64,000 bases of DNA from Negaprion brevirostris. Taxonomy: Eukaryota. The stretch spans positions 93,620,663 through 93,684,662 of the forward strand of contig JARDVH010000084.1 in NCBI GenBank assembly GCA_030324005.1, in the 5' to 3' direction. The notes under the pieces were generated by a model. That model saw only the letters and a program-made list of their open reading frames with translations. It was not told the DNA's origin and did no database searches. The position numbers were made by a program, and so were the translations under genes. Position 1 is the first letter of the stretch, and every line of letters starts with the position of its first letter. This document shows positions 22,549 through 59,669 of the stretch, piece by piece.

Positions 22549-22695
22549 TCAGACATTGGCACTTGCTTCTTGTCCTTTCTGCACTGGCATCATGGGCGTT
22601 GACACATCAGGATTGAATTTTATCTCATCATATATTGTGGTGAGTTGAACTCGACTTTGCTGTCTTTCACTGGCATCCAATTGACATAAATGTCC
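22549..22695 (-). CDS. CD2/SLAM-family receptor, terminal cytoplasmic exon with ITSM
   Basis: Acceptor gtctcag|GGA (phase 0; most of the upstream intron is in a gap). Translation GHLCQLDASERQQSRVQLTTIYDEIKFNPDVSTPMMPVQKGQEASANV*. TIYDEI at 22638-22621 fits the ITSM consensus TxYxxI/V. Confidence 0.82.
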   Translation of the reverse strand, partial: GHLCQLDASERQQSRVQLTTIYDEIKFNPDVSTPMMPVQKGQEASANV

Positions 22696-22945
22696 CTGAG
22701 ACTTGAANNNNNNNNNNNNNNNNNNNNNNNNNNNNNNNNNNNNNNNNNNNNNNNNNNNNNNNNNNNNNNNNNNNNNNNNNNNNNNNNNNNNNNNNNNNNN
22801 NNNNNNNNNNNNNNNNNNNNNNNNNNNNNNNNNNNNNNNNNNNNNNNNNNNNNNNNNNNNNNNNNNNNNNNNNNNNNNTTCTGTGATAATGCAGGGGAAT
22901 TTTGTACTGTGGCAAAACAGAGGAAGCTCTGTGGTGTGGGGTGAC

Positions 22946-23258: not shown

Positions 23259-24294
23259 TGGGTGAAAGGGAGTTTTGTTTTGCAGGGTGTGCAGACATAA
23301 CACTGTATGCACACCTACATACAGGGACTATCCAGGGTGAAAAATTGAGAGGGAGTTTTGGTTTGCAGGGTGTGCAGACATAACGCTGTACAACAAAGTA
23401 TTAATAAAGACAGCTTTGAAATGTCAGGTAAAATGTGGGTTTTGATTTTTCATCAACATGACATTTAATTTTAGGTTGGAAATATACTAACAGATTAAAG
23501 ATAGAATGCACTAAAAACAGGAAATAACTATGAGGTCACTCAGATGTGTTTTAATCATGAAGTGGTTTTATAATTTCTGATTAATGATTGCTCTCACTAT
23601 CCCGTCCGTTCTCTGGTCATATTTAAATCAGACCCAAGATATTTACTGTGAGATTACATGGTGCTAACTTGCTGCTGATTCTGCTGCTAAGGGTAGACCA
23701 TAATATGCTACTGAGCACATGCCTACCCTGAAGCTGAAGGGACCAATTTTCAAGTGTGCTTTTGAATTCTTTCTAGTTTGCTTTCAAACGTATCTTCCTT
23801 CTCTTGTTAGTGGTTTCTCGCTCAAGTTATAACCACAGAACTAAAAACAGAAGCATTCAGAGAGCAAGATCGAGAAAGGCAGACAGACAGAGATGACTAG
23901 GAAAGCCACAGGCAAGAGCTAACAGAAGTAGATGAAAAAATGAAGGTAAAAAAATCATGAGGATAGTAACAGAATACAGATGAGAGACAGAAATACAGAA
24001 AAAAGAAATGAGAATAACAAACACAAGATGATTAAAGCAGAGAAAAATACAGAGGACAAAGAGGAAAAGCAACACAAAAGGGGGTGTAACAGATATCAGG
24101 AGAATAATAGAAAAGACAAAGGGAATTTTAGCCTAATGCCCCAGGGGAAATCCTCCAGAATCAGATAAAACATTTTTTTGCACCCTGCTCCATAACTGCA
24201 CTGACTTCAACTATCTGCCAGCATTCTCTCAGATCCAGTGTGTTTCTCTACAGGCAAGTTAGGACAAGCCTGTAGAGAAAGAAATAGGAGATTA

Positions 24295-24535
24295 GAAATA
24301 GGAGAGGAGAGGTCACCCTGTTGGGAGTCTTTTATAGACCTCCAAAAAGTTCTAGAGAGATTGNNNNNNNNNNNNNNNNNNNNNNNNNNNNNNNNNNNNN
24401 NNNNNNNNNNNNNNNNNNNNNNNNNNNNNNNNNNNNNNNNNNNNNNNNNNNNNNNNNNNNNNNAAAGCTGGTCGGCGCAACATCGTGGGCCGAAGGGCCT
24501 GTTCTGCGCTGTAATGTTCTATGTTCTATGTTCTA
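24295..24535 (+). mobile_element. CR1 fragments flanking a gap
   Basis: Endonuclease motif GVFYRPP before the gap; (atgttct)n tail after it. Confidence 0.75.
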
Positions 24536-26826
24536 AAGGCACTGGATCAGAGGGATAATAAGAGTGACAGAAAGAGAGCCTCATATTGACCTCATTGGTC
24601 CAAAACCAAAGAATTGAGATGATGACCCATCAGACCTCACAGGTAAATGGATCTTATCTGAAATCCTCTTTCCTGGAACAACTAACCATTGAAAGAATAA
24701 GTAAAGGCAAACAACTACATTTTGACTTTTCTTTTGTGAGCAACAAGACACATCTCGAATTACAGACATGATATAACTAAAGGGCCGAACAGGCTTGATG
24801 GGCTGAATGGCTCAGTCCTGTTCTGATGTTCATTCACTCCTTGACTGTTACAACTCAGGTACAGGGCTAATACAGCAGATCTTGCAAACAGTATTTAAAT
24901 CTCTTGAGCTAGCCCTAGTCAAATACAGACCTTGGTCATAGAGCACGACCAACATGTTGGTGCAGTATTAAGATAGTGCGTGGTGAGACAAGGAAAATTA
25001 TGGTGGAATTAGGAGAATTTAACAATAGAATTTGGCAGATTAGAGTTAATGCAATTGAAAACCTCTGAGTTAAAAGACAGTAGGAGAAGCTTGGAAAATA
25101 ATGGAAGGTGTCAGCATCAGTGTTAGTACGATTGGAAAAGAAAGGAAAAAGAATATAAAAGCAAAATATTATAGATTGTGGAGATCTGGAAGAAAACAAA
25201 GTGCAGGAAGAACTCAGCAGGTACTTTTAGGCGGCATCTTTGGAGAAAGAAGCACAGGCCGAAGTTGTCCGGCTGTTACTGCTCGTGGGACCTTCTGGTC
25301 CCGCTGACAGCCACCCCTTGTTGTGGGTTCCATGGTGACAGAGGATGCAATCAATAGGAAAACCTGTTGACAGTGGCTGACTGGAGATCACCGCAAAGCA
25401 TACTACAGGGAAGGTTAGGGGTAGAAAGTCCCATCCAGATTAATGTTTTGAGTCTAATGTAACTCTCCTTTGGAGAAACATGGTTTGGTCAGTGTGTATG
25501 AACAAATATAAAAGGTTGCATTGGAAATATGTTAGCACATGGAAACAGCAGGGATGCAACATTAATAAATTATTAGGTGCAGTGACATGAGGCAAGACAT
25601 TGTATTATTGCTATTTCATTCTATTAACATTCTCACCCACAAAGGTAATTAGATAAAAACACAATGAATAATAAGTGAGAGGCATGTTGGGCATTGCAGT
25701 TTTAAATTATACTTTAACAAAGTGCAGATCCAGCACAGGCTTCTTCCTCATTACTATCAGCCTCATTACATCCACCTTCAGTGCAGGTTTCCAGCTTCAA
25801 GTTTCAATGTAGAATGTTACACAAAACCGCATTCATGTTAAAAGAATCTAGAATGTTATATTCTCAATTTGTTCAAGAATAATGAATGCATGACATGTTA
25901 CTCTGGTACATTCACAATTATTCTTAATAGTTTGGGAGATGTGTGTTATAACATTTCCAACACTGTGACATGACTGTTTAACAAAAATGTAGAATGTAGT
26001 ANNNNNNNNNNNNNNNNNNNGTAGAATGTAGTATTGTCCTTGAAAGTGGACTGAACCAGAGAGGACCTATCAGTCAGCAGCCGCTGTTATGTGGAAAACA
26101 GCTTGTTTAGCTGCTCTGACATTGCTGCGGGCCTTACATATTATATTACCAGTTCCATCCTTTGTCTCACGGAAGGGAGGGAAGAATGCCTATAAATGAT
26201 CTTTCCGCTCCAGGTACACATCAGAACTTGAGGAATAATGAAGCTTTGTGTGCATAGTGTTTGCATAATGCACTGCCAAAATTAACTTTGGGGCTAATAA
26301 ATTTTCAAGTTCAGAAATAAAAGCATGAGGATGAAGGGAAGAGGAAGATCGTTTGTTGAAGCTTAGGAGAAACAGGAGGTGAAAGTTCAGAGCGAAATTC
26401 ACCACAGTAACATTGATAAATTAGGAAGAGGGACAGGGAAACTTTGAAGTTATACGTTTGTGGTCAGATATCCCTTTTTCTAAGATGAAGTGTGAGATGA
26501 GTGCTTGAAAACACCCCACCCTTCCCAACTATGTCTCCACCCCTATAGATGTGGGAACAGAGTTTGTGAAAAAGGAAGCAAATTAAGAAGCAGCAGCCTT
26601 ATGTTACTAATTGCAAATCCTATCACGGAGACGCCTTGGTGTAGTCACATGATGGGTCATATTGGCATTTCCATTACAAAATGTTTGAATTATTTGAAAT
26701 GAATAAGTGAACTGCAACTTTAAGTAATGCTGCTTTTCTCATTAAAGTAGCCAGATGAAGTTAGTGTTCGCATAGAGGAGGCTGTAGAGAATAAACGATA
26801 GACATGCTTTTGCTGCTTGTACTAAC

Positions 26827-26900
26827 CTGGACCCTGGCATTGCTCGTTCTCGTGATTGCAGCGTACTGTGCTGGTTCACTTGTCCCCTCAATGTTAGGAG
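26827..26900 (-). CDS. CD2/SLAM-family receptor, cytoplasmic exon 1 (AQYAAI tyrosine motif)
   Basis: Acceptor gtttctatttaaag| and donor CAG|gttagt; 74 nt, phase 1-0. Translation APNIEGTSEPAQYAAITRTSNARVQ. Its end phase matches the next exon. Confidence 0.75.
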
Positions 26901-29057
26901 CTTTAAATAGAAACAATTGCTGTTGGAACCACGTTTGGAAGCTCTTTTAAGTTTAAAAAAGTTCTCACCAATTTCCTTCCTGTGCTAAAAGCACAGGACT
27001 AAAAGCTCGTCCAAATGATCCTTCTATATGTAAAAGCCTAGATGTGATTGTTCTCTAGCAATATACCCATTATACAGATACCACTCATACAGCCAAATCT
27101 GATCACGCTCCCATTGGGAATGCTTTTAAACAGTGAAATGTCACCTCAAATATCCTACCCAATAGCACTGACGTGAAGCCCAGTCAGGTGCTGTCATCAG
27201 GGAGGTAACTTCCAGTGACCTTTAGACACATAATTCTATATTGACTGGGTATTCATTAAAAGAGAGATTTCTAAGTCATCCTTTTGTGAAGAATTATGGG
27301 CTATCGTGAGAGATTTGAGACTCCAACATTATGTTAAGTAAAACAAAGTGTAGAGTAGGTAAAATGATTACATTTTTGAACTGATACAACTCAGGAAGTG
27401 ACCATGGGCTGTCTTTGGCAGGAAGGATAATCTCATGAGATTGGTCATTTAATTATTTTTTGATGAAAGTAATTATTGCCTTGTCTTGTCACATGTTGCA
27501 TCTCTACGACGCCAAAAAAACAACTATATTTGCATTCAGAATTATCTAAGGTTAGTATTCCATTCAGACAAAATTCATAAGCGCAGTCATGTGCTGAAGT
27601 NNNNNNNNNNNNNNNNNNNNNNNNNNNNNNNNNNNNNNNNNNNNNNNNNNNNNNNNNNNNNNNNNNNNNNNNNNNNNNNNNNNNNNNNNNNNNNNNNNNN
27701 GAAAGGGTTAATGCAGCCTTTTTATTGAGTGACATAGCTAAAATATCAAGGAAAGCATTGCAGGATAGTGCCAAATTTGAAATGAATGAGGGAGATTAGA
27801 TATATTGGTGAGTGATATTTTATTGGCATCAATGCTGTAGGAAATGTGGGAAGAGGAGAACTCTGAACAAGTTATTCAGGTCCTGGAAAAGTGGGGTTTT
27901 AGACTTAAAGACAACATTCTGAATCTTTGCAATTTGTGATAAATTCTATGAACCAGTGACAAAATGCACCATTAGCTAACCAGTTTGTATCAGTATTTAT
28001 CCTCTGGACGACTACTGGTCCTCATCCCTAATGCTTGCCCTGTTCCTGTATCTATCTATCCTTTTACCTTGAAACATCTTTCTATCCTCTTCATAAAAGG
28101 TTAAATTTCTTGGGGTCAACTTTAGCAGATTTTTGTTCAATCACCACAAAGTTATGGCTTTCAACACCACCAATATCAATCATGTGACTTAATACTAATA
28201 AGTGGATACCAGTGCTCTGATGACATTCACCCCATGGTCTCTGCTTCATTCACTTAAGTTACTAATTCTGGAAGGACATGTCACAGCCTTAGTACTCTCT
28301 TGTATTTTCTTGCTGTCTTAAGTAAATTACTTTTAACCTTATATTCTCTCATTCTGGATACTTGAATCATTGGATACAACTGCTGCAAAACCTGCTCCTA
28401 ATTCTTGATAATTTTAAACACTCACAATTCCTTGCTCTAATGAAAACATCTCAGCTTTTGCTTTGATGTTGGCTCACGCCAGACAGCACCAGTTATCCTG
28501 TGCTGATTTCATTGTATTGCCTCAATCTCTTTGGCTACTTTGGAATTAAAATTCTGCACCAACACTCTTACCTGGTCTTATCTCATCTCACTTATACACT
28601 ACTGATACACACACTGCATTTTTATAGTATATAGAGTCTGTTAAGGCACCTATCTATGGACCACTATATACTATAGATCACTATTTACACATGAAGGGTC
28701 TCATTCCACAAGATCCAAGACATGTCTGAGGTGTTGGTGATATTTTGTTACATAGAGTGATTTAGTACCTGACAGATAATGAACCAGATTTTCAAATGAC
28801 CACAGAGGTGGGGCTGGAAGCNNNNNNNNNNCAGGGGACATCTGGCTCAGGAGCATTTTCAAGGAGACGAGGGAGAAGACACAGGGATAACATCCCTGCA
28901 CTCCATGCAGTGAGCAGCTAAGTGAATCACTTAAGAGGTCAAGTAAAGCCTCATTTATACCAACTAGAATTTTCCAGTCAAAAGGCAAGCACCCCCATGG
29001 TGGACAAAACATAGCCAGTTAAAGGAGGTGACTTGGTGGCAAAGCAGAGGGAAAACA

Positions 29058-29290
29058 CAGTGGCAAGTGATTTAGCATTGCTGCATCACAGCACCAGGGA
29101 CCCAAACTGAATTCCTATGCGGAGTCTGCATGTTCTCCTGATGTCTGCATAGGTTTCCTCCGCGTGCTCTGGTTTGCTCCCACAATCGAAAAGACATGCT
29201 AATTTCTCCATCAATGTGCCCAAACAGGCACCGGAGTGTAGTGACTAGGGAACTTTCACAGTATCTTCATGTATTCATGTCACAAGTAGA
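29058..29290 (+). repeat. tRNA-derived V-SINE-like element
   Basis: Head ttagcattgctgcatcacagcaccagggaccc, V core and gactagggaactttcacagta tail. Confidence 0.75.
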
Positions 29291-29299
29291 CTTACATAA

Positions 29300-30330
29300 A
29301 GAGGAGCCCTGCTTTAAAAATATTCAAAGACAGTGCTTCCATTGCCTTTTCAGGAAGTGAGTTTCAAAGTTGCAACCATCTGAGAGATATTTTTCTCCGA
29401 ATCTCTGACTTTAACGTGCAGTCCCTTATTTTTAAACAGTGACTCTTAGTTCTACATTCACCCACAATTCATCCTCTCCACATTCACCCTGTCAGGACCC
29501 TTCAGGATCTTAAAAGGTTTCAATTAAGTTAGCTCTCTTACTCGTCTACACTCCAGTGAATATAAGCCTTGCCTATTCGACCCTTCCTCATAAGACAACC
29601 TGCCATCCAGTAAACCTTCTCTGAACGGCTTCCAATGCATGTACATCCCTCTTTAAATAAGGAGACTGATACTGTTCATTGCTCCAGATGTGGCCACTCC
29701 AATGCCCTGTATGACTGAAGTATAACCTCTACTCTTATATTCAATTCAATTTGCAATGATAGCAATCTATTATCTTAATTAATTACATGTGCTTGTATAC
29801 CATCCTCGTGTGATTCATGCATGAGGATGCCCAGATCCCTCTGAATCTGAGCTCTGCAATCTCTCACAATTTAGATAATATGCTTTTTTATTCTCTCTGC
29901 TAAAATGGACAATTCACACTTCCGCACATTTAATTTGCCAGATGTTTGCCCACTTATCCATGTCCCTTTGTAGGCTTGTTATATCTTTTTCATAGTTTAC
30001 TTTTCTACCCATCTTTCTGTCATCAGCAAATTTAGCAACAATACCTTCGTTCCTTCATCTACGTCACGTGTCTAAATTTTAAAACATTGAGGTGGCACAA
30101 AAGGTGTGAAGAACAGTTTATAAGGCATACCGTATTCTGGGCTTTATTAATAGGGGCATGGAATACAAGAGCAAGGAGGGTGTGTTGAACTGATACAGGA
30201 CACTAGTTGGATGTCAGCTGCAGTATGATGTATAGTACTGGGTGCAGAAGAGATTCACAAGAATGGTTCCAGTGATGAGAAACTTAAGTTACGAAAGTAG
30301 ATTGGAGATAAGGAGGCTCAGAGGATGTTA
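29300..30330. mobile_element. CR1 fragments (minus 29300-30090, plus 30095-30330)
   Basis: RT C-terminal homology on both strands. Confidence 0.7.
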
Positions 30331-30564
30331 TGTATTAACTGGGAATTAAAACAAACAGGAAAATAATGAGGTGCCACACTTGTGGGTTTATTTAGAAGAT
30401 GTTGCTTCTTCCAAGTCCAAGATGGAAGAGCCTTAAAAGCCCATGAATCCTTCTGCTTACGTCATTATAGGTATCATGATGTTATACCAGCAGAGATGCA
30501 GCCATTTGAAATAAATAGCATCCCTTGCCCTTTAAGAAAAGTTGTCATGTGGGGACTAAAGGAG

Positions 30565-31075
30565 GTGGAGGTGATTCTCCCAGTCCACTTTGCTGCAAAT
30601 GATGCACAGCAGGCCAGGAGATTCAAACGGAGGCTGTTCAGCGGGCTTCACACTGGGTACCACGGCCTCCACACCAGAAATCAGTGTGGAGCTGCATAAA
30701 TTATTTAAATGCGCATTCCAATACAAGTTGAACATCATTAGTACACCTGGGACTGAAGTCTCTGGACCTGCCAGCCTCTACCCCCCTCCTCTCTCCAGCA
30801 GGGTTTACAATAGCTCCCCACTTGCGGGGAACTGGTGGCCAACCTTACGAGAGTGAAGGGGGGGCCACTGAGGCCCCCAGAGGATCAGAGCAAGGGGGCT
30901 GCCCCCCCCCCAGGGACATCGCCAACTTGGCAGTGCCACTTTGGCCCCTGGCACTGCCAAAGGAGCAAAGTGGCAATGCCCAGGGGGCACCTTGGTACTG
31001 CTCACCAGGATCAGGATTGCCTGATGGGGGGGGGGGGCAGGAAGTGGGGGTGGGCACCACTGCGTCTCTACAATA
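30565..31075. mobile_element. GC-rich non-autonomous DNA transposon-like element
   Basis: GC-rich island with internal inverted motifs ttggcagtgcc/ggcactgccaa and G/C runs; starts with a gattctccc TIR-like sequence. Confidence 0.5.
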
Positions 31076-31169
31076 TGGACCTGTTTTTGCTAGGATAACA
31101 GCAGGTACTCATTTTTCATTGGTTATGTATCTTATTACTAGTACTTGTTCTGAGTAAATACTGTCTTTT

Positions 31170-34100
31170 TGAGAGTGCTGTTCCCTCCTAGCAATCTGCG
31201 CTTCATGTTGTTGCTCAACAATCTCTGAAGTATCAGATGGTATAAAAAAAGGTCAAATTTTGTTCTTAGCTTTCTTTTTAAAAGTGCTATCACTGATAAA
31301 CTTTGTTATAGGATGTACAGTGTCCCTGTGTGATACCACAAAGTTATTTATTTGTCTTGACAATGCACCCTGGTTGTTTGATGCCTTGATTGATTTTTTT
31401 TGTGACTATAAATTGTTCGGCAAATTACTTTGTAGATGGATGGACGGAGCCAACTTGATTTGCTGCACATCATTTCCTTTCAAGGAGCCCTTGAACTCAT
31501 TGGAAGTGAACAGTGTCCCATTGTCACTTACTAATTTGCTCAGGTTGACCAAATCTGGCAAATATTTCATCCAGTTTTTAAATTGCTTCCAGCAATTTAG
31601 AATGTGCATCTACAGTACTAGGAACATGTGTCCCTCTATTGGGCCAGTATAAGCTAAGTATTCTCGCTGCCATAACTGTTTCGGCCATTTCCACAGATGT
31701 AAGGGTTATAACAGTGGAATATTTCTTAGTTTTGTACAGGGCTCCCATTGCCCCACTTCCTCTTCAATTTGTGCATTTATTCCTGGTCACCAAAAATGTC
31801 AGTTCCTACATTCTCAGCATGTAGCTTTTCAAGGATTCTCCCACGCAAGCATGAAAGAATATTTGCTCAGATTCCCTACAATAAAACTCTGTTCCAGACT
31901 GCCTTTTTGTGATGTAAGCCTTGGGGTCTGCGGTTTCCACAATGCATTTCCGTTTTTTTTTTAGGACCATATCCAAAACATTCCCCATCATTGGATCGGT
32001 TCTTGTGTTTCACTGAACTTGAGTTGAAGTCACAGGTACTGTCCACTTGTGTGAGATATAGAACGTTAAAAGTTTGTTCAGGTTCTTACTTGATTTGTAA
32101 TGGCAATCAAGACAAAGCATCAGCATTTGTAGGTTGCTCTGATTTACAATATTTTATATTGTAGGTGTGTGCTGATAACATTAAAGACCATTTCTGTAAT
32201 CTACCAACTGCTAAAGAAGGAACATCTTAATATGGCCTGAAGATTTTTCTTGGGGTCGGTGATCTGTCAAAAGTGTAAAATGACAGCCATACAGGTAGAG
32301 ATGAAATCTTCTTGCTCTGAACATGATACTCAAAGCTTCTTTTTCCAGCTGAGCATAATCTGTTTCCACACTAATAAAAGAGTTTTGAAACGAAAGCCAC
32401 TGGTTGCCTTTCACTCGAAAGCATGATGTGATTGAAGTGCATTAATAGCTCTGAGTTCTCTAAGGCTTCTTTTACCTTTTTGTACACTCTTACGCAATCC
32501 CCCTTGACGGTTTGACACATGGCAAAGTATGCAGTGGCTTCAATAGCATTGCTAAGTTTGGAACAAATTTACATAATAGTTTATCAATCCTAAAAAGAAA
32601 CAGTTGTGCCACATTTTGAGGAAATGGTGCTTCTAAGATTGCCATCATATTTTCTGTTTGTTATGTAAGCCATCTTTATCAACAATGTGACCCAAGTAGT
32701 TTATGGATATATTGAAAAAGTCACAATTTTCCTTTTTGACCTGGAGATTATGCTTTGCAGACATTGCAATGTGGCTTCCAATTTCTTCATGTGCTCTTGT
32801 TGAAATTGTGATGAGGATATCATCTAGACAACACTGCATACCATTTAGCCCACCCAGAATTTGACCCATGGACCTCTGGAATAGAGCAGGTGCAGATGTT
32901 ATCCCAATGACAGTCTCCATTATTGAAACAGACCATTTTGTCTCAATAGTGAATAATGGTGTGAACTTGCAGTCACATTCATTTGGCAGTAAGCTGGTGG
33001 TAGATCTCTTTTTACTGAATTTTGAGACTTCAGATAGTCTAGTGAATAAGACTTTAATCAGCAGTAGTGGATATTGACCAGCACACAAAACCATATTAAT
33101 TGTTATCTTGAAATTGCCACAAATCCTTACTGAGCCATCAGGTTTTAGCACAGGCCCAATCACTTGTAGTAACTGGCTCAATGACTCCTGTTTTGAATAG
33201 TTATTCTTAGTTTCTCAACTTTGGTCTGATGGTCTATGATACCATTTTGACTTTGAGATATTTTGGCATACTGTTTGGCTCAATTTTGAGTTGGACTTGA
33301 ACTCCTGTCGTTGACTCATGAGTTTTCAAATATAATTTTGTACTTTTCTAGAAGTTGCTGTAGGTCAGTCTTATTATCGACCAATGATTTACAGATCCCA
33401 GCATAAAGCAGAAAAGTTCCCATGGACCATGTGAGGTCTGCTGTTTGTACATTCAGTTCTATTTTTATGCTAATGTATCTTTTTACTAGTGTGACCATTT
33501 CTGTGTATATGTATGTATGTATATATAACACGTCTTTCGGATGACATTTGATGCTTTAAATAGCAAATGCTTTAACTTCTGATTATATGCTGGCTCAGCT
33601 ATCGGTGATACTGCAGCTTCAGTATCCACTTCCATTTTGACTAGTTTACTCAACATTGGAAATACCCAAAAATGTTATCAGTCGTCATTGATAAGATCCT
33701 CGTGTCAACTCTTAAATTTGTCTTGGCACATTACCATCTAAGGTGTCTGCATTTTTTTGCCTGTCATCTTATCAATTCATGCATACCTCAATGTATTCTT
33801 TTTCATATACATTAGTGGGATAGAGGATTTTGCTGTGTTCAGCATGTTTTGACATTATGTCCTTTTTGCACAATTCTTGCACTTTTCCTTACTCCAGCAT
33901 TCCCCTAATAAGTTTCCAACTTGTGCACATCGGTTACATGCTTGTACTTTTGCAGGTTTATTTCTAGTGGTCTCCATTTTGTGGATCTTCATCCCNNNNN
34001 NNNNNNNNNNNNNNNNNNNNNNNNNNNNNNNNNNNNNNNNNNNNNNNNNNNNNNNNNNNNNNNNNNNNNNNNNNNNNNNNNNNNNNNNNNNNNNNCTTCA

Positions 34101-34900
34101 TCCCAACTCCTACCTGTGAAGCTCCTTTAGCAGACAGCTCCATAAACACTGCAATGTCTACTGCTGATTTAAAAGTCAGTGTTCTTTCAGTGAGTGGCTT
34201 TCTTTGAATAGCTTCATTCCAGATTCCACATACCAGTGGCATGGTGGTTAGCACTGCTGCCTCAGGTACCCAGGTTCAATTCTGGCCTCGGTTGACTGTA
34301 GAGTTGCATATTTTCCCTGTTTCTGCGTGGGTTTCCTTAGGGTGTTCTGGTTTCCTCCCACATTCCAAAGACGTGCGTGTTAGGTTGCTTGGCCATGTTA
34401 AGTTGCTAAGTCAGGGGGATTAGCAGGGTAAATACATGGGGTTACAAGAATAGAGCCTAGGTGAAATTGTTGTTGGTGAAAGCTCAATGGGCACTGTAGG
34501 TATTCTATCATGAGAGTATCAAGTGTTGCATCAAGTTTGCAGCGTTTAAGCTAGGCTTTGTAAGGACGCCACGAACTGTCAAATGCTTTCACCTCGCTTC
34601 ACCAGTGCAACCTAAATTTTTCTGCATTAATGAGTGGTTTTGGCAAGAAATGCCCTTGTAAATCCTTCATCAATTTATTAGTTTTTGACTCCTGGCTCTG
34701 CTGGATGGATGAGATTTTATAGTGATGTAGAAGTTCTATGTCCTACCAAACTGAGAAATGTTTAGGTAATCTGATACTTGATTTGCTTGGAAATAATATT
34801 GGAATTTTTCTTATGAGTTCCAAGTCTCTCATTATTGATCAAACACATCCATGCTGCTAACTGTCCTGTCATTTTTAGTTACCAGCTACCAGGTTTTACA
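31170..34900 (-). mobile_element. Gypsy/Ty3 LTR retrotransposon internal region, decayed
   Basis: Order gag (VCGIWNEAIQRK...LTFKSAVDIA), protease (VKMEVDTEAAVS, ~33610-33650), RT (KPDGSVRICG; SAPALFQRSM; LDDILI), RNase H ([11 protein letters not shown]; FTLLTDHRP), integrase (LVSDNGTLFTSNEF). Many stops and frameshifts. Confidence 0.93.
34236..34508 (+). repeat. V-SINE/HE1-like SINE inserted in the Gypsy gag
   Basis: gtggcatggtggttagcactgctgcctc head and V-domain core; gag homology resumes on both sides. Confidence 0.85.
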
Positions 34901-34979
34901 CTTGTTCAGTTTCCCCCTCTTCCTTATACAATGCAAGAGATCACTCCAGCTATCACATAGCAGGAGATTTACTCCTGCT

Positions 34980-36090
34980 GTTCAAAATTTAAGGGGGCTG
35001 GACAGAGTAGAAAGGGAGAAACTATTCCCACTCGTAAAAGGATCATGAATGGGAAGGCACAAATTTAAAGTAATTTGCAAAAGATGAAACTATGATACAA
35101 GAAGAAATCTTTTCACACAATGAATCATTTGAATCTGGAGTATTCTACTTGGAAGTGTGGTGGGGGCAGATTCAATCAATGCATTCAAGAGGACATTAGA
35201 TAATTATGAATGAATGCTGTGATCCAGTTGCAGTCAGCCCTTTCTGGGATCATGGATCCTGGGAATGAATGCCTTGTTCCCAGAGACCACCAGCCAGAGG
35301 CCAGCCACTGTGCATTTTAGGCAGTGTCTGATTGACTGATGAAAGTTATCAGTAATGCACCCCACAGAGGCTCAGTGTTGCTGAGGAGGCCAGGCCACAG
35401 GTAGTAAGGGCAAGGATGGGGTTGCAAGGTGGGCCTCAAAACTCTGGTTAGACCCCACTTGGAGTTCTGTGAGCAAATCTGGACACCACACCTTAGGAAG
35501 GATATATTGCCTTTGGAGGGAGTACAGTGCAGTTTTACAAGAATTATTTCTGAACTTCAGGGTTTATATTATTATACAAATTAGGCCTTATGTGCTGTAA
35601 GATACAGGGCCATGGGCTGGATGCAGGAAGGTGGGATTAGAAACGCCACCTGGGTGTCTTTGGGTTGGCATGGACAAGATGACTGAATGATCTCCTTCTG
35701 TGTTGTAACTTTTGTATGGTTCTGTAGTTTTCTCCAGTATGTAGAGGTTTGAGGGCTGATTTGATCGTTTTTTAAGATATTAATAGGAAAAGACAGGATA
35801 GGTAAAAATAAACTGTTTCTATTGGTTGGGATTCAGGGACATGTAGTCTAAAAATTAGGCCAGATCATTCAAGAGAAATGTTAGGAAGCGGTTCTACACA
35901 CAAAGGGTGGTAGAGGTTTGAAACTGTCTTCAAGAAAAGAAAGTTGATGCTAAATCGGTTGTTAATTTTAAATCTGAGATAGACAATTTTTTTGTTAAGA
36001 AAAGGTATTCATGATATGGGCCAGAGACAGTTGTACTAAATGGTGGAATGAGTTTGAAGGGCTGAATGGCCCATTCCTGTTCTGATGTTC
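34980..36090 (+). mobile_element. Cluster of CR1 3' fragments
   Basis: GLDRVEREKLFPL and RPHLEFC remnants; gggctgaatggcc tail. Confidence 0.7.
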
Positions 36091-36565
36091 ACAGAGGATG
36101 TCGTTCAGCAGCAAAGGCAAGATGAGTGGTTTTCACCACTCCCACTACCTATTTCTCAGTGCTATATCCCTCAATCAGGAACTGACTCTGGGAGCCTAAA
36201 AGCAAGCTTTCATCCTGGGAACTCAAAGGCAAGGTTTGCTTTCCGGCACCTCAGTACATTAAGATCCCAACCGCCACTGCCATTGAGTGAATACTGATGA
36301 TGTTGAAATGGACATTAGTTGCCCACTTAATAGTATAACAGAAAGGCCATCCACAAGCTTCTGCCTCAGAGTTAATGGGGGCAAAAGCAGGAAGGCAGTC
36401 GGATCTTCAACTGCCCAATTTAATCCCCTACCTCCCAGGCTCCAAAATTGTCCTGAGTGGATTGGGGGTGGGGAGAGTCATTAAATTATACCTTGTTTTC
36501 TCAATTTAGCAGTTATTAGATGCTGAAATTATGACCAAGGAAGATGAACAATCAAGAGTACCTGC

Positions 36566-36688
36566 CTTCATTGGGCTTCGACTGTTTCTTCCTTACAAAG
36601 ATTGCAGCAACCAGGATGACAATCAATATGGTAATCACAGCAACTGCTATGCCAATGTGGAGCTGAGTTTTGTTTTGTAAGTTGGGAT
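36566..36688 (-). CDS. CD2/SLAM-family receptor, stalk and transmembrane exon
   Basis: Acceptor ctcttttttcag|AT (phase 1). Translation DPNLQNKTQLHIGIAVAVITILIVILVAAIFVRKKQSKPNE gives a ~21-aa hydrophobic span followed by an RKK stop-transfer. The 3' end is ambiguous: exon ends at 36566 with a GC donor, or at 36562 or 36597 with GT donors. Confidence 0.88.
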
Positions 36689-36854
36689 CTGAAAAAAGAG
36701 AATATTTTCACTGTGACTCTGTTCCTTTATTGACACATAGGGATTTAAATAAACATACTTTTAAAAAAAATCTTGGGAATGAGAATGGCTGAAGCAGCAT
36801 CAAGGTCAGCGTTTGAAATTTTCAACTCAATTGACACACATTATCGTCCAGTTT

Positions 36855-37085
36855 TATTGTTAAACTTGATTACGGAACGGTTACACCACTGGAGACAATT
36901 GACCCAGCATGTCCATGCTGATTTTCTAAGGGCAACCCAGCTGGTCCCATTCCCCACCCTTTTTTTCATAGTTCTGAATTTTTTTTTTATCTTCAGATAA
37001 TCATCCAATGCGCTTTCAAAAGCCACAATTGAATCTGTTTCCAGTGTACTGTCAATACTGTTCAATCCCAACCACTTGCTGCCTC
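36855..37085 (-). mobile_element. CR1 3' end fragment
   Basis: ETDSIVAFESALDDYL matches the CR1 ORF2 C-terminus. Confidence 0.65.
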
Positions 37086-37574
37086 TTGCCTGATAATGGA
37101 TGACCTTTTTGCTTTAATTCCAAACTCCAAGATTAATCCCAAAAGCAAGTGTCTTTAAGACAAAATTGTAATTAATAGGGGATCATTGATGGACGGTGAT
37201 TCCTATTCAATGATTCAATTAATCTCGTCCTCTGCTTGCTTTTCAACACTGATTTTTCTAATTAAACCCAGAGTTTTCTGATCCTGAATCAATGTTTTAC
37301 TTCTAACTTTGTAAAGCTTTCTTGCTATCAATTTCATAAGTGATTTAGTGCAACTTGGGAAGAAGGAAAACCCCAACTCTGAAGGCTGAAGCATATGACA
37401 GTAGACCAGTTATGGTTATTTATGACTCAACCTTTGCATTCTGACCAGGGCAAAGATAAAGCCACTAATTTTAAAAACAGGAACTATAGGGAATTAGATG
37501 AGTGCAGTATGGTGATAACTTGTTTGGTAAGGCACCCTTTGTGTGGCCTTGTGACAAATTTCCATTTCTAGCTT

Positions 37575-38480
37575 ATTGAATTTGGCTGAATAACAACTCC
37601 AACCTTTCGAAGGCTTGACTTGATAAGTGATAAGTAAAATTTGTGCCATCTAAGTAACAGTCAAGACCATCTCCAGCGAACAAGAATTTAACCATCTCCC
37701 TTTGAGATTCAGTGCCAGTATTATTGCTGAATTTCCCCACCATTGGAGTGGAAATGGGGTTACCATTAACCAGAGACAGACCTGGATTTGCCATATGAAT
37801 TTTGTGGCTACAAGAGCAGGTTGGAGGCTGGGAATTCTGCAGCAAATACCTCATTCTAAAAAGGTGTCCACCACATACAGGACACTTGTCAGGAATGTGA
37901 TGAAATATTCTCCATTTGCTTGGATGAGTTCAGTTCTGACAACATCAGCCAAGTACTGGTAAATGGAATTGGGTAAGAGGTCAGGTTTTCTCATGTGTCA
38001 GTACAGACTGGATAGACTGAAGAGCCTATGTACACTGTCTAATTTTATGATTCTAAGAAGCTCAATGCCATCCCGGAAAAGGCAACCTATTCACAACCTC
38101 AGCATTCACATCCCTCCACACTGAAGCATGGCGGCAACAGCACGCACTATATACAAAATGCACTGCAACAATTTCAAGGTTCTTTAAACAGCACATTTCA
38201 AACTTGCAATCTCTATCACATAGAAGGATAAGGGCAGCATACGTATGGGAACTCCATCACCTGCAGCTTTGCTGGGCCATGCCTCCCCCAAGCCACATGC
38301 CAACCTGACTTCAACATGTCACAGACTTAAAAATTGGTAAATTCCCTCCCTAAGTTTTGTTAATGTTTTACCTAACACCTTATGGACTACAATTGTTCAA
38401 GAAGTCAGTTCGGAATCGCCAAGGGCAATTAGGAATGGGCAATAAACACTGTCCTAGTCAGCTAACTAATTCACAGAACA
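37575..38480 (+). mobile_element. CR1/L2-clade LINE 3' fragment
   Basis: ATRAGWRLGIL and TTYRTLVRNVMKYSPFAW motifs; gggcaattaggaatgggcaataaa tail. Confidence 0.75.
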
Positions 38481-39778
38481 TTGGTTGGTTGGTTGGTGGG
38501 GGTGGGAAAGATTTTTTTTCTTTTAATTGCACTAACTCTTGCAGATATATAATTGAATGGCTGTCAACCACATCTTGATACCAAAGCTATCTAGACAGTG
38601 AGAGGTGGTCATACCCTAAACCATCACATTAGTGACTCATGGCATTGAGTTAATCTCTGGGTTTTCACCATACCCAATGACAGCAATGGAAAGTAACGTT
38701 GGTCTCATTTGTTTTCCAAGGGCGGATTAGGTTAAAATTACACTCAATCCTGCCACTAATCTTTGCCTATTTTGGCGATTACCCAATTTTTATACAGATG
38801 TACATTTTCCAGCAGGACATCCTAGAAAGTGGTGTGAAGTGAGAAAACCGCCACTTGTTTCCTCATCCTTAACTCAGCCACCATCCTGGCATTCCTGCTT
38901 GTCTATTCAGCTCAATTATACTTTTATTGGAGATATCAAGCCAAATGTACGGGCCAGATCTTCCAATCAGCAGTGATGCTGTGTGCATTGCTGCTGCTGG
39001 TTGAAATCATTACACTTTTGGTGCCCACTTTCAGTCAGGATTTCCAAGTCCAGCTAAAACATTAAAACCCTGGTGCAGCAATCAGGAGAAAACTGGAAAA
39101 AAAGGACAATTTTTTTTTTACAACATTATTGATCATACTTCCATAAGTACTTCAAAGTCTCGTGTACTCAATCGGTGTATCATAGGATGGGAAATGGATC
39201 ATTGGGCTTGGATTGGGAGGGTGGGTGACTTGTGTCAGATCAGAGTGTTGCTTGGTCGGGGTGGGTTAAGTTTTACTGTTAGTCACTTGAGTTACACTAG
39301 AGACTAGACAGTCTGTAACTTCTCGGATAAGTAATGTATTTGTTGTCCAAGAGATCAACGTAGCCTGGTGTTGCAGGCAATTCAAATCAGCCCATCGAAA
39401 GTTTAAACTTCCCAGGCAATGATGGCCCCTCTGTGCTCGTAAAGACCTCCTGAGGGTCCTGTTTCTTTCCAACAAATTGAGTAGAGTGTTAGGCATGGCA
39501 GTAGTGCAGCCTTACATAGCGTCCCATCGTTTTATCACTACCATTAAGTTTAAGTAAATCCACCTTCCAAAGTTAAATGGAAAGAGCAAAATAATATTCA
39601 CATTAGACTCCAAATGTGTCCATGCAAGCAACAGCCCAGACACAATACCTGCACAGTGCTTGCGCCCACAAAACTGTTCCCAGCAAGAGTCAGTGTTAAT
39701 AGAAGGGCAGAAAATTGAAGGGAAAATATACATTTCATTAGTTCTGGAAACTCAGGGTCAATTAAAGAGAGCACCAAC

Positions 39779-40069
39779 CTTTTCCAATGTTACATGGTCC
39801 TGCGAGGTCAATGCTCCCGGTCTCCTTACTAACTGGGTTCTTCACCGTGCAGTTATAAATTGTCTTGGCCTCATGTCGATCTAGAGACATTTCCAGTGTC
39901 GTTCCATTGTCAGTAACACTGTGTAACCCACCAGTTGTGATCTCCTCTGATCCTCTCCACCAGCTGTATTTCAGGTTACTGTTGTTTTCCACTGAACAGC
40001 TCAGGCTAACATTACAGATCCCATTAGTGGAGACACCTTTTATCTGTATGTTTAGATTTGATACACGTT
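39779..40069 (-). CDS. CD2/SLAM-family receptor, IgC2 exon
   Basis: Acceptor tctttgaatag|AA and donor AAAG|gttggt; 291 nt, phase 1-1. Translation ERVSNLNIQIKGVSTNGICNVSLSCSVENNSNLKYSWWR...IYNCTVKNPVSKETGSIDLAGPCNIGK has four Cys (CxxxLxC, YxCxxxNPVS, distal C), the SLAM C2 signature. Confidence 0.93.
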
Positions 40070-41039
40070 CTATTCAAAGAAAAGCATAAGTAGACTTAAT
40101 GATACAACAAGATTTAGAAGTTAGGACATTGGAGAATGTGTTTGTCAGTCATGATTTAAAGAAATTTATTTGATCACTTTAGGGACTCAGAGAAGGATAT
40201 CCTTTGTTGGCCTAATTTCTAGTGCCTTTCAACAGCTATGGAAGACAAATTCAATTGACCATTTTCTCCCCCCAGTAGAAAGCAGAGATTGATGCTACTG
40301 ATTCTCAGCTGGGAGCTTTGTGATCAATAGCTGGGAGCTGCTGCTTTGGACAAACAGAGGACTCAGATGCAGCAGCAACTCACCTGCTTCAAAAGACCTT
40401 TACATTACTGAGTCAAAAATCTTGGAACCCTAACCCAGCAGCACTGTGTGAATATCCTCACTGCAAGAGAATGCAGTCAGAAACAACACACACCATCATC
40501 TTTTTAAGGACCATTATGGATGGTCAACAGATATTGACCTTAGGGGGCAATGGCCACACTCCAAGAATGAATTTAAAGTATTGTCAGTGTATGTTGTTTT
40601 ATACTATGCCATACCTCCTTAGTGCCTAGCTGTGTAGGTTCACACTTTCTTCACCATAACAATAATGATTTGTGCATGTATTGCACTTTTAATATAATAA
40701 AATGCCTTGTTGGACTTCAATAGAATATTACCAATAAAAAACTGACTAATTTACATAAGGAGACTTTACAACAGATGACCAAAAACTTAGTTAAAGTGAA
40801 TCTGATAGCATAGTGTTTAATTACTGGACTAGTAACCCAAAAGCCTGGGCCAGAGAGCCGCTGATGTGAGGATGTCTGGTGAGTGGAGCCATGGGCAGGA
40901 TGAGGATGTGAGCTTAACATAAATAGACCTTATGGAAACGTGAGGGTATTTGTTTGAGAGGGTAGTGATATCCCCTTGAAGTGGCAATGTGAAAGAATCA
41001 ATGGGAATGTGTGAGCCTGTGAAGCAAGAATAACTATGG

Positions 41040-42829: not shown

Positions 42830-44062
42830 CATCATGTTTTTTGAGGATGTGACCAGTAGAGTGGACAAGGGTTAACCAGTGAATGTTGTGTAACTGGGCT
42901 TTCAAAAGACTTTTGACAAGATCCCACACAAGAGATTAGTGAACAAAATTAAAACTCTTGTTATTGGGCTAATGTATTGATAATAGTTGGCAGAAAGGAA
43001 GCAGAGAGTGGGAATAAATGGGTCCTTTTCAGAGTGGCAGGCAGTGACTAGTGATGTACGGCAGGGTTCAGTGCTGGGACCCCAGCTTTTCACCAACTAC
43101 ATCAATGATTTTAATGAAGGAATTGAATGCAATATCTCCAAATTTGCAGTTGGCACTACGCTGGGTGGCAGTGTGTGCTGTGGGAAGGATACTAAGAGGC
43201 TGCAGGGTGACTTGGACAGGCTGGCTGAATGGATAAATACTTGGCAAAGGCAATATAATGTGGATAAATGTGAGTTTATCCACTTTGGTAGCAAAAACAA
43301 GAAGGAAGATTATTAGCTGAATGGTGACAGTTTAGCAAAAGGGGAAGTGCAGCATGACCTGGGTGTCACGGTGGAACAGTTGATGAAGGTTGTTGTGCAG
43401 GTACAGCAGGCGGTGAGGAAAGCTAATGGCATGCTGGCCTTCATAGCAGGAGGATTTGAATATCAGAGTAAGGATGTCTTGCTGCAGTTATACAGGGCCT
43501 TGATAAGGCCACGCCTTGAGTATTGTGTGCAGTTTTGGTTTCCTAGTTTGGGGAAGGACATTCTTGAGATTGAGGGAGTCCACAAAGGTTCACCAGCCTG
43601 ATTCCTGGAATGGCAGGACTGACATATGAAGAGAAACTGGATCGACTGGACTTGTACTCACTGGAATTTAGAAGAATGAGAGGGGGATCCCATAGAAACA
43701 TATACAATCCTGATGGGACTGGACAGTCTGGATGTGCGAAGAAGGTTCCCAGTGTTGGGGAAGTCCAGAACTAGGGGTCACAGTCTAAGAATAAAGGATA
43801 AGCCATTCAGGACAGAGATGTGGAAGAACTTCTTCACTCAGAGAGTTGTGAACCTATGGAATTCTCTCCCACAGAAAGCTGCTGGAGCCAGTTTAGTGGA
43901 TATGTTCAAGAGGGAGCTGAATGTGGCCCTTGCGGCTAAAGGAATCAAGGGATTATGGAGAGAAAGTGAGAGTGGGAAGGTGAAAGTGATTATATTGAAT
44001 GGTGGAGCAGGCTCAACAGGCTGAATGGCCTGTTCCTGCTCCTACTTTCTATATTTCTATGT
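42830..44062 (+). mobile_element. CR1 LINE 3' ~1.2 kb
   Basis: QGSVLGPQLF, RPRLEYCVQFW and FFTQRVVNLWNSLP motifs; tttctat tail. Confidence 0.95.
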
Positions 44063-45154: not shown

Positions 45155-45490
45155 CATAAACTCGCAGTTCTGTAACTTCTTCGTGAACAACGCCTTCTGA
45201 TCTTGCATTAACTTCATAGAAGCCTTGGTCACTTTTCCTCAGGGTCTGTATTTCCAAACTGAAGTCTGTGAGGTTTAAGTTGATTCTCTGTCCAAACTCA
45301 TTGGTACAGTCTGCTGGGTTGTTTTGGGTTTTCATACATAGTTGAATCTTTATCCCACTGGATGAATTTGTGAAGTCCCAAGTAACTATCGAAGGGTCTG
45401 CCCATGGTAAATGTACTGATAACGTTACAGACTGTCCCAGAGTCCCATTCACCAGGTGCAAAATGGAATTCCCATCCACCCGTCCCAGAC
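45155..45490 (-). CDS. CD2/SLAM-family receptor, N-terminal IgV-like exon
   Basis: Acceptor tttcttttccag|G and donor TATG|gtaatc; 336 nt, phase 1-1. Translation GLGRVDGNSILHLVNGTLGQSVTLSV...VTWDF...RINLNLTDFSLEIQTLRKSDQGFYEV...ELRVY has the V-set motifs (G-x-S-V-T-L, C-strand Trp, D-x-G-x-Y) but no B-F cysteines, as is typical of CD2/SLAM domain 1. Confidence 0.92.
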
Positions 45491-47994
45491 CTGGAAAAGA
45501 AACAGGATGTGCCATGAGAGTGCTTTTAGTTCTGGTTTGTTTGGGACTGACTTTCTACTCTGTCCTCCATTGTTGTTCCTGAACTGAAATACATTTCAGA
45601 GTTTGTGCAAGCACTGATATAGTATTAGTTAGAAGCCATGGCTCTTAAACTTAGAGAAGTCTTCAGTTGGAGAGTTTCACTTATAATCCTTGTACCTGAA
45701 TCATTGACTCAGCAAAATATAAACAGAGAAAATGAAAGAAAAATTTGCTATTAAAGAGTGCCTTTCAATCTCCCAAAGCACTTGACAGCCACTGAAGTAT
45801 AAGATATAGCCACCATTGTAATGTAGGAAATACAAGAGCCAGTTTTTCATACAGTAAGCTCCTACAAATAGCAGAGATGATGACCAAATATCATGTTTCA
45901 ATTATGTTAACTAAAGTATAAATATTGAGCAATACATAAGGAAAACCTTCCCCCTCTTTCAAAATAGTGTTGACATCTTTTACATGTAGCCAAAAGGGCA
46001 GGGAGGGTCTTACTCTATTTTCCCATTGGAAAGACTGCGGGTGCGATCTTTCCTGCCATTCATATCACACTTCTATTGCAGTGTGGTTGGAGAATTTGGC
46101 AGCCAGCCAAATCTCTGTTCACTGTGGCAGGATGGGACAATCCCGCAGCTGTGAACGTAGTAAGATTGCAGCCTGCACCTCAGGCAGTGAAGCATGTCAC
46201 CAGTACTGCACTGGAATATCAGCCTGGATTTGTGTTCAGTAGTCTGGGAAAATCTCAAAACCAGCACTTTCTTAGAGACAACAGTGTTACCACCTAACCA
46301 TAATGGATTAAAATGACGTAAATATATGAGTAAGTGTCATTTTGGGTGAGAAAAGTGGTGTGATTCATGTGACATGACTGGCATGAATCAGATCGCAATT
46401 TTCCCACACTGTCATTTTTTTAGGAAAGGGGTGCCTGAGAGGATTCGAATAAGGTTTTATGTCAGAACTGAACGTGCTATATCCCTCACCTGCAATCTTC
46501 TAGCCCTGCTTCGCTCTAATGTGATCTTCATCAGGCGCGACATGGCTGCAAAATCGTGACCATTCTTTTCTTTTATAAGTTTTACAGGAAGGCATTTGAA
46601 CCCCAATCTCAAGTTTGGGTTGATTAGAAGCCTAAAGTGTTAACAAATATGAATCATGACATAAACTTAAGGGAGGTTGAACAAGAGTGGAGCAATGAAC
46701 GAGCTCCCAAAAGGTGGTTAACAGAGCAGTTGGCAACCTTACATTGATCCATAATTTTAAATGCTATCCAGATTGTTCGGGTCTTGACAACTAAAGGTCC
46801 CCTTGTTATTTACCATACCTCACCATGCCCTAGTGATTGGACACTCCCCTGAGCCATTCCATTCTTCCCTGAGCTATCTCACAAGGGTTCTGGTCTCTCC
46901 ATGAAGTCTCTAATTTTGTGTTAGAGGCTGTCAATTTCAAATCTTATTCCACCTCTGACTGCACTCCCTTCCACACACACACAATCACTCCACAAATCTG
47001 GATTCCGATCCCAAAGGAATTCTCTAACCATTCATCTCTAATGATCGCCAACACGTTTCCCATGTTTCAATTCCTTCGGCCTTCAGCTGTGCCCATGCCA
47101 TGCTCCCCAAGACCTCATCTCTAATACCTATCTCCTCCATCCCATGCTCTCAGATACATCTTGCTAATCTTGGCTCTCAGGCTGCCACCTGGTACGGAGT
47201 TTGTTTGCTCAACAGCCAGCCCAGCCTATAAGTCCAGCTTGATTGAGAATAGGAATCTGCTTTCCCTCTCACTTTTGTATCATTCACACGTTTGGCCACA
47301 ATATTCTCTGTTGCTCCTTCCAGATTGTTATATAGTGAAGACCTGGGGTTCCAGCACAGACCTATGGCACTCCACTGGTGACTGTTCTCCAATCTAAGAA
47401 ACAACAACTTATTGCTACTCGCTGCTTCACAACACCAGTTTTATGCCTTGGTGGCAAGTTTGTAAAGCACCCTGCTGTCTCTTTCACTTGCTGTTTATTA
47501 AGAGGAATACAACTAATTACAGGAACAAAATAAGTATTAATATAAAACTATATTCTCCTGGTTCTCCCACTGCCAACCCAGCTCCGTTGCTATGTTTCCA
47601 TTTGAGTACAAAAAAGCCCATTGTATCACTCTTCTTAATGCCTCACCTTACTCATAGAATCCGTTATGCCAGCTCTTTAAAGTATTATCAAATTCATACC
47701 ACTGTCTCTGCCCCTAAAGTCATAGATTTTTCTGTTTTGTTCTTACTGTTCCATTTCTCCTCCAGTCACATGACTGGACACCTCACTGTGAGATCTGGAA
47801 CTGGAGGTCAAATGAAGATTTTGTCTCTGCTGTTTTAAGCATTGGGATGTTGCATGCACAGCTTGGGTTGATTTTCAAATTTCTGCTCCCGTGAAAAAAC
47901 AATTTTGTGGAGAGTTAATGGAAATTAATAGAGTGTAAAAAATGCTGCTAATTTCCCATAGTGCATATTGCACAGAGTCAAATATAACCCCAAA

Positions 47995-49030
47995 GTGTAA
48001 GACCAAAAGGAACAGGAGCAGGAGCAGGCCATTCCGTCCTTTGAGTTTGTTTCACCATTTAATAAGTTCATGGCTGGTTGAACACTGACCAAGTCAATTT
48101 TCCTGCCTTCTCTCCGTAATGCTTAATTGCCCTAATGATTAAAAACCTATCGATCTCAGCCTTGAAAGTGCCCAAGAACTCAGACTCCACAGCTTCCTTG
48201 GGTAAAGAATTCCAAACATTCGCCACTCCGAGAAAATAAATTCTTCCTCAAATCCATCTTTAATGATTAACTCCTTAATCTGAGACTATGCCCCCAGGTC
48301 CTACACATGAATGGAAACATTTTCCCAACACTCCCAACAACCTGTCTAACCCCTGAACGATCTTACTATTTCAGCCTTATCACTTCTCATTCTTCTGAGC
48401 TCTAAGAATTACAGGCCTAGCCTGTCCAATGTTTCCTCACATGATAGTTACTCCATACCCTGGATCATCCTAGTAAACCTGCTCTCGACTGCCTCCAGTG
48501 ACATTATATATTTCCTTAACTAAGGGGACCAAAACTCTACAGTATTCTAAATGTGACCTCACTAGTATCTTGTGCAGTTATAGCAACACCTCTTTACATT
48601 TATATTCTGGCTCCCTTGGAATAAAAGCCAACAATTCATTTGCCTTCCCTATTACTTTGCACTTCTATGCCAGCTTTCTGAGTTTCATGAACAGCTACAG
48701 CTTTCTTCATATCTCTTCCATTTAAATAATAATCCATCTTCTCTGTCTTTCTTTCAAAACGAACTCTCTCATTTTCCCACATTGAATTCCATTTGACAAT
48801 TTTATGCCAGTCACTTAACCTGTCAATATCTTACTGTTATTTATATTCTCACAATCTGCCTTTCCTCCCATCTTTGTATCATCCACATATTTGGCCAAAG
48901 CATATTCTGTTCTTTCCTCCAAGTCATTAACATATATTGTGAGGAGCTGTGGTCCCAGCACTGATCCCTGTGGCACTCCACTAATTAATTCTCTGTCCTG
49001 AGAAAGACCTACTTATCTCTACTCACTTCT
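47995..49030 (-). mobile_element. CR1 LINE 3' fragment, old
   Basis: ggagcaggagcaggccattc tail and [10 protein letters not shown] on the reverse strand near 48950-48980. Confidence 0.8.
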
Positions 49031-49865
49031 TCACAATATCAGTTTTACGTCTTGGTGGCAAATTTGGAAAGCACCCTGCTGTCTCTTTCACTTGCTGTTT
49101 AGTAAGGGGAATACAGCTAAATTACAGGAGATACGGATATGACTGAGGTCTCCTGTGAATTTCCTCCCTTTTATATATGCTTTCTGTCAAACACAATGTT
49201 GCAGATGGAAAGTGGGTGGTGAATACATCGATTTTACCCAACTACTGGGTCTGTGAAGTCAGAAAAACAGAGTCTCATCGCAGATATGAAATCGATGTTC
49301 TTCCTGTAGCTATAAATTGATTGCAAAAGTACCTAATGTATTTCCGGTATAATCCTTGATCTACCCTGGAAAGCAGAGCGTTCACAAGACCGCGACCCTT
49401 GAGTAGGAAGGCTGGAGGATTGTGCTGGGGATATAATATCAAAGAAATCTAACTTTTCTGGTGATCCGGGCTATGTCTCAGCCCTGCATTACTCATTTTT
49501 TCCCATCCAAATTTGCATAAAAACAAATGTCTTTTAGATTTGGTTTGTAACACTGAGCGTATAGAGAAAGAGCTTGGAGGAAATTAATCCATTTCCATAA
49601 ACCACCAAAAATGTTTAGGCCACGAAGAGAACCAGGGGAATTTCTGAATCAGAAGAAATACTCATCAGAGAGAGGCTGAGCAAGCGACAGTTGGCAGGAG
49701 GGTGAATAAAGGCAGGATATTGAATCATTGGAAACACAGATGGAAGTTGATGAGGTTTGTATTGTGGCAGCACCAGCCCAAATAGGCGAAGGGTCGTCTT
49801 CATCTAAACTGATCTCAGCCTTCCTCCCATTCCCTTACAATGCCTTTCCTCCTTTCTGAGATTGA

Positions 49866-59480: not shown

Positions 59481-59669
59481 TGAAATGAGTATCCCAGTTG
59501 AAAGTTAGCCCCCACTGAACCCTGGCTATGAGGACAGGAGACTAGCTGACATTAGGAACCATGGGGACGAGGACAGTCAGCTAAATAACAGTGCTGTCAA
59601 AATGAATTTGGGATAAAATTAGTTCACATTTGAAAAAGCATGAAGTAATAAATAAAAATATGTACTGAT

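Follow-up and report, generated by a model that had tools for sequence, protein, structure and literature searches.

The last coding exon of a shark receptor gene of the SLAM/CD2 family appears to be an ancient dual-coding exon that probably switches the receptor between adaptors. The gene lies in a 64-kb stretch of DNA, referred to here as the window. At the end of its transmembrane (TM) exon, two splice donors lie 4 nt apart, and the use of one or the other, combined with inclusion or skipping of a 74-nt exon, gives access to different frames of the last exon, one of which encodes an ITSM and another a pY-x-N motif. We regard the exon as dual coding because both of these outcomes seem to be maintained by selection. 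Judged from comparative sequence evidence, both main tails have probably been kept by selection, so that the receptor would swap ITSM recruitment for recruitment of the Grb2 family.

On the evidence of its exons (Table 1), the gene encodes a chondrichthyan SLAM/CD2-family receptor with an IgV domain, an IgC2 domain, and a TM segment, and it is present in a single copy in the window. The predicted protein has the architecture of the family, with an N-terminal IgV domain, a membrane-proximal C2-type Ig domain, a single TM helix, and one ITSM. Its IgV domain is 79% identical to that of Mustelus SLAM family member 9-like, the closest named relative. SLAMF6 is both the top mammalian match (24%, E 6e-7) and the top PDB match of the Mustelus orthologue (E 4.3e-10); no single mammalian SLAMF is assigned as the orthologue. 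A search of positions 45501-64000 for a leader exon found none (best E 0.21), and the leader exon may lie in a gap or beyond the window. The junction from 39779 to 36688 is contained in record 21 of run X2, as deduced from piece lengths. The donor of the 74-nt exon, CAG/gttagt, matches the consensus MAG/GTRAGT at 8/9 positions. The last exon gives tblastn matches in all three frames, and its AG lies just outside an assembly gap (22708-22878), within which the pyrimidine tract falls.

Table 1. Exons, splice donors, and motifs of the receptor gene, in window coordinates
Feature	Position	Strand	Basis or remark
IgV exon, phase 1-1	45155..45490	minus	Pfam V-set E 9.4e-11, 42.3 bits vs cut-off 26
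Second Ig exon (C2-type), phase 1-1	39779..40069	minus	Pfam I-set E 1.9e-07, ig E 5.4e-07, both above cut-off
TM exon, 123 nt with donor A, phase 1-1	36566..36688	minus	Translation; tblastn of protein P0010, 81% over 42 aa
Candidate donor C, TTT/gtaagg, exon end 36597, phase 0	36591..36599	minus	Unsupported
Donor A, AAG/gcaggt, exon end 36566, phase 1	36560..36568	minus	GC donor, ITSM isoform
Donor B, CAG/gtactc, exon end 36562, phase 2	36556..36564	minus	GT donor 4 nt downstream; YxN isoform or GSS-stop
Read-through of both donors, GRYS then stop (tail-less)	36551..36565	minus	Translation; X2 contig; 1/90 isoforms (P0042)
Cytoplasmic exon 1, 74 nt, skippable	26827..26900	minus	tblastn of orthologue tails, identity up to 92%
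AQYAAI motif in 74-nt exon	26871-26854	minus	Not a canonical ITSM: T missing at -2
Last coding exon, main-frame stop at 22551-22549	22549..22701	minus	X4 record 24 departs from genome at 22701
Dual-coding overlap of last exon	22701-22620	minus	Two frames read
Second-frame motif DIYVNW, pY-x-N type	22677..22694	minus	Second-frame stop 22622-22620
Main-frame ITSM TIYDEI	22621..22638	minus	Fits TxYxxV/I

Several further features of the window and its relatives were observed. On the minus strand, positions 18719-18669 resemble a terminal exon used alternatively by Mustelus isoforms X3 and X7 (82% over 17 aa) and have an AG acceptor. Positions 2226-2164, also on the minus strand and 34 kb downstream of the TM exon, resemble the beginning of the tail that donor B gives in Mustelus isoform X2 (86% over 21 aa); a donor-like site follows this match, and within the window it lacks a clear AG acceptor ahead of it. 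Skipping of the TM exon (joining the exons at 39779 and 26900) is phase compatible, and TM-less isoforms that keep the tail frame are annotated in Mustelus (P0003 and P0008) and Stegostoma (P0025); these are possibly secreted forms. Decayed reverse-transcriptase-like fragments, recognized by eye in the list of open reading frames, are of the LTR type in the TM intron (32645-33214 and 33964-34275, minus strand) and of the LINE type at 5191-7002 and 42987-44024.

The original prediction placed three candidate donors in three phases at the end of the TM exon, and on the minus strand both their sequences and their phases are as it gave them. Donor A does differ at one position from AG/gcaagt, and translation bears out that joining donor B to the exon at 26900 yields GSS-stop and that joining donor C to it opens a different (third) frame. 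We scored the donors as matches to MAG/GTRAGT over nine positions. Donor A matches at 7/9, and the window's minus strand holds 12 GC sites that reach at least this score; donor B matches at 6/9, as do GT sites about once per 100 nt; and donor C matches at 5/9, a level met 2.4 times per 100 nt, about three times in an exon of this size. Because such sites are so frequent, donor C is at chance level, and its use was found in none of 107 isoforms (0/107); it was rejected on both counts. Its +3 base is changed from A to G in three of the four runs aligned, and its use would remove the basic residues that follow the TM helix. Donors A and B are thus real, and the third is not supported. Donor A has GC at +1/+2 and a strong remaining match (7/9), as in U2-type GC-AG introns, and there is very probably a genuine GC-AG intron here; the GC at +2 is read directly in the window and in one of the four runs (X2), peptides being unable to separate GGC from GGT.

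To count the use of these donors in relatives, 112 proteins were gathered, five of which were dropped (three window peptides, one unrelated member of 49 aa, and one bat SLAMF6). Seventeen of the remaining 107 lack a TM-exon end, being TM-skipped forms, paralogues, or truncated, and were read by eye; they contain no donor C. The final set comprises 90 isoforms with a recognizable TM-exon end from 21 species; it includes three older duplicate versions from Callorhinchus, and the Pristis and Mobula clusters gave one isoform each. Nearly all 90 are database gene models, and for the window's own species we infer donor use. In 41 of the 90 isoforms, representing all 21 species, donor A is joined to the 74-nt exon, E/K-A running straight into that exon with zero inserted residues. 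By this count donor A is the main donor, and the prediction that the ITSM tail depends on a direct junction from the GC donor (36566) to 26900 is upheld. Donor A was expected to keep both AQYAAI and TIYDEI in frame; the frame is indeed kept, and measured against the canonical consensus TxYxxV/I, as given in PMC12084948, TIYDEI alone qualifies in this tail. TxYDEI is present in 19/19 genes.

The main annotated arrangement of donor B joins it to the last exon in its second frame, with the 74-nt exon skipped (19/90 isoforms). It is annotated in 15 of the 21 species, spanning sharks, skates, rays, and the chimaera Callorhinchus. Donor A leads into the third frame of the last exon in 7/90 isoforms, GSS-stop occurs in 3/90 (two species), read-through in 1/90, and other ends in 19/90. 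Strict coupling of donor choice to skipping is not supported, as all four combinations are annotated and NMD would bias protein counts in the same direction. Acceptors at 26941 and 26878, either of which would put donor B in the main frame, were rejected for their weak tracts or contexts, and the 14-residue insertion or 7-residue loss that they would produce was seen in no isoform tail on reading by eye. In skates and a stingray (P0073, P0074, P0099, P0104, and P0036), a second acceptor lies 6 nt into the last exon and removes two residues, leaving both frames intact.

Two isoforms thus read one exon in different frames in 15/21 species, the chimaera included. In 16/16 genes, the main-frame and second-frame peptides can be encoded by one DNA sequence entered at a phase-2 AG; for two more species, the second-frame sequence was worked out solely from the other two frames. 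YxN followed by W is found in 19/19 genes including that of the window (YVN in 16, YIN in two, and YAN in one), and in all 19 the tripeptide fits the Grb2 SH2 consensus pY-X-N-X, as stated in PMC6435016, making it a predicted docking site. Around 22653-22648, the window is one codon shorter in the overlap than 17 of 18 orthologues, without loss of either frame; the overlap of Callorhinchus is likewise shorter by one codon.

To compare constraint on the two frames, changes were counted by parsimony, using a tree built without the last exon together with a species tree, and letters deduced from the peptides. Under DIYVNW there are two changes at main-frame wobble positions and six to seven at second-frame wobble positions, several of which alter the main protein, whereas under TIYDEI the pattern is reversed, with 14 main-frame wobble changes and one second-frame wobble change (Fisher P 0.0007-0.002). 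A six-codon segment as quiet as the DIYVNW stretch has a permutation P of about 0.004, this stretch having been chosen post hoc. At non-CpG main-frame synonymous sites, there are two changes at six sites under the motif versus 27 changes at 14 sites (binomial P 0.003-0.005, likewise post hoc). Within the motif, the comparison of second-frame wobble with other positions gives P 0.07-0.12. The main-frame wobble sites under Y, N, and W show no change in 19 genes, and the main-frame first positions there do change (G/R, L/I, C/R, and Q/E).

The strongest alternative to selection on both tails is that only the GC-donor ITSM isoform matters and that the +4 cut and the skipping are noise arising from a weak donor; the second frame would then have stayed open because the main-frame HLxQLD, an exonic splicing enhancer, or both fix the nucleotides. 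Slippage by 4 nt needs no selection because the GT of donor B is the +5/+6 of donor A's own consensus, and a GT at those positions is ordinary donor consensus according to PMC11162779 and PMC2490688. The quiet stretch lies 8-25 nt from the acceptor. Splicing enhancers are common near acceptors. The main-frame L, L, and D are also nearly invariant there, the C/R/H variation falls on a CpG hot spot, the contrast between frames is not significant once CpG sites are removed (Fisher P 0.10-0.24), and an isoform in the noisy third frame is annotated too. Against this reading, the constraint appears to track the codon positions of the second frame, down to the absence of change at the main-frame wobble positions that underlie Y, N, and W; the length of the third frame, in contrast, ranges between 6 and 27 aa; and joining of donor B to the last exon is annotated in most of the species sampled. 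Overall, we regard noise as unlikely to be the whole explanation, and selection on both tails as the better account.

If both tails are selected, one U1-type site, AAG/GCAG/GT, would be cut either at the GC (36566) or 4 nt further on at the GT (36562), the weak GC donor permitting the +4 cut. Donor choice and inclusion or skipping of the 74-nt exon would together give four outcomes. The GC donor with inclusion would yield a 75-aa tail carrying YAxI and the ITSM, and the GT donor with skipping would yield a 28-aa tail carrying DIYVNW in the second frame and without the ITSM. The GC donor with skipping would yield a third-frame tail of variable length and with no conserved tyrosine, and the GT donor with inclusion would yield GSS-stop, probably degraded. 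Under this scheme, receptors sharing one ectodomain would recruit SAP/EAT-2/SHP-type proteins through the ITSM tail and the Grb2 family through the pY-V-N tail. More tentatively, and with the balance somewhat against it, the GC/GT pair may have been kept as a regulated switch since before the chimaera-elasmobranch split, governing two mutually exclusive SH2-docking sites in overlapping frames. If so, a 4-nt shift together with an exon skip could let immune cells redirect a single receptor from one pathway to another.

In the original prediction, donor choice could toggle instead between a signaling ITSM receptor and tail-less decoys ending in GSS-stop, by analogy with the long and short tails of SLAMF7 (CS1-L and CS1-S) and 2B4; read-through to GRYS-stop would give a further tail-less form. 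The tail does change with the donor, but the main annotated product of donor B is the conserved YxN tail, and GSS-stop, cast there as the product of donor B, is a minor outcome. The stop in GSS-stop lies 67 nt upstream of the last junction. Under the NMD rule, the limiting distance is 50-55 nt. Because of this position the GSS-stop transcript is likely an NMD target, a prediction that weighs against a decoy, as does the fact that the short tails differ among species while the YxN tail is conserved. In favor of decoys, GSS-stop is annotated in two species, the 15 isoforms classed as "G-other" include several further very short tails, CS1-S is described in PMC7409338 as lacking ITSMs and not activating NK cells, and a spliced contig, record 21 of run X2, reads through both donors and beyond the in-frame stop, although this read-through may represent partly spliced RNA. 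That contig leaves the reference at 36510 with 525 further letters. We therefore consider a signaling-versus-decoy toggle improbable as the main role of the donor pair; the decoy reading is secondary, and the switch looks like one between signaling and different signaling. Paralogues that have a TM segment and few cytoplasmic residues occur in catsharks, the epaulette shark, and skates (P0026, P0034, P0045, and P0047), and decoys may therefore already be present in the family at the level of genes.

RNA-like contigs were also compared with the gene. Four of 16 runs (10 of the 16 being only presumed to be RNA) were aligned on 22400-40200 at 85% likeness, and junction statements from them are arithmetic on piece lengths, repeats dominating the table of joints. 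Among the joints listed from these four runs, none is a junction of 36566, 36562, 26900, or 22701, including that from donor B to 22701. In run X4, record 24 (depth 13.8) has 114 letters remaining where it departs from the genome. Depth in this run is 25 at 36594 and 11.2 at 36606, and a two-allele site splits the contigs there. This logic holds on the side of record 31, which ends at 36607, because its 88 remaining letters equal 6 + 82. Record 24 would then end at 36605, and its 114 letters equal 74 + 40, which puts the donor at 36566; with donor B the remainder would have to be 118. Provided that the 74-nt exon is of equal length in that organism, the X4 lengths are consistent with the path 36566-26900-22701. 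Record 21 of run X2 passes from the Ig exon to 36688 and continues to 36510 with two differences only (36594 and 36606), and the GCAGGT hexamer is unchanged in its organism. In run X1, the piece that covers the TM exon runs unspliced into both flanks and is uninformative on donor use.

These data bear on the reading that the GC is a sequencing error or species quirk, with the ITSM isoform made through the GT donor and an unseen phase 2-1 micro-exon, which the original prediction had named as the case that would overturn it: intron assembly gaps at 27601-27700, 28822-28831, and 33996-34095 leave room for such an exon, and the GC has so far been read in the window and in the X2 organism, but the micro-exon is ruled out because the direct junction from donor A to the 74-nt exon has no added residue in 41/90 isoforms, neither X2 difference falls at the donor, and the X4 lengths leave no spare bases, so that this reading is largely refuted and scarcely credible.

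The same exons are present in RefSeq chondrichthyan models named SLAM family member 9-like or SLAM-like, and both main tails occur among them as automatic isoforms (for example, XP_078073567.1 and XP_078073572.1 in Mustelus and XP_007908711.2 and XP_007908712.2 in Callorhinchus), as unremarked predictions. We found no published account of the donor pair, the dual frame, the YxN motif, or shark SLAM isoforms in a search that left most subscription journals outside its reach. Mammalian SLAMF7 (CS1-L and CS1-S) and mouse 2B4 (2B4-L and 2B4-S) likewise combine one ectodomain with alternative tails. As summarized in PMC7409338, the short CS1 and 2B4 forms lose ITSMs, 2B4-S and 2B4-L signal oppositely, and CS1-S is non-activating and has no known function. 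Unlike CS1-S, the short shark tail holds a different conserved SH2-type motif, in an overlapping frame of the ITSM exon itself.

GC-AG introns number in the thousands per genome. They account for 0.82% of human U2 introns and have a stronger flanking consensus (PMC1557818), and an enrichment in alternatively spliced genes is reported in PMC2490688. The GC-AG intron alone is therefore ordinary; what is notable is the last exon, 14 kb downstream, which cartilaginous fishes, from sharks to a chimaera, read in two frames. In PMC11162779, a single U1 site is described as serving two cuts at the delta-3 tandem donor of STAT3 exon 21, a principle that the shark donor pair would share. In contrast to known tandem donors, the shark pair shifts the frame by 4 nt between GC and GT, and skipping of the 74-nt exon is what makes this shift productive. 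Tress et al. (bioRxiv 10.64898/2026.05.28.727796) describe alternatively spliced dual-coding exons with selection in both frames, and their set resembles the shark exon in giving different C termini from one exon, in its age, and in reduced synonymous change. That set is human centered and brain enriched, whereas the shark exon belongs to an immune receptor and carries one SH2 motif per frame; the main text of that preprint contains neither "SLAM" nor "CD84", and the supplements could list family members.

If functional, the shark exon would represent a compact and very old case in which the same DNA lets an immune receptor exchange phosphotyrosine motifs, in the lineage with adaptive immunity that branched off earliest. 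Whether +4 donor slippage, usually deemed noise, can be fixed as a signaling switch could also be tested directly on it, and the exon suggests that overlooked second-frame tails are worth seeking in the SLAM genes of bony vertebrates.
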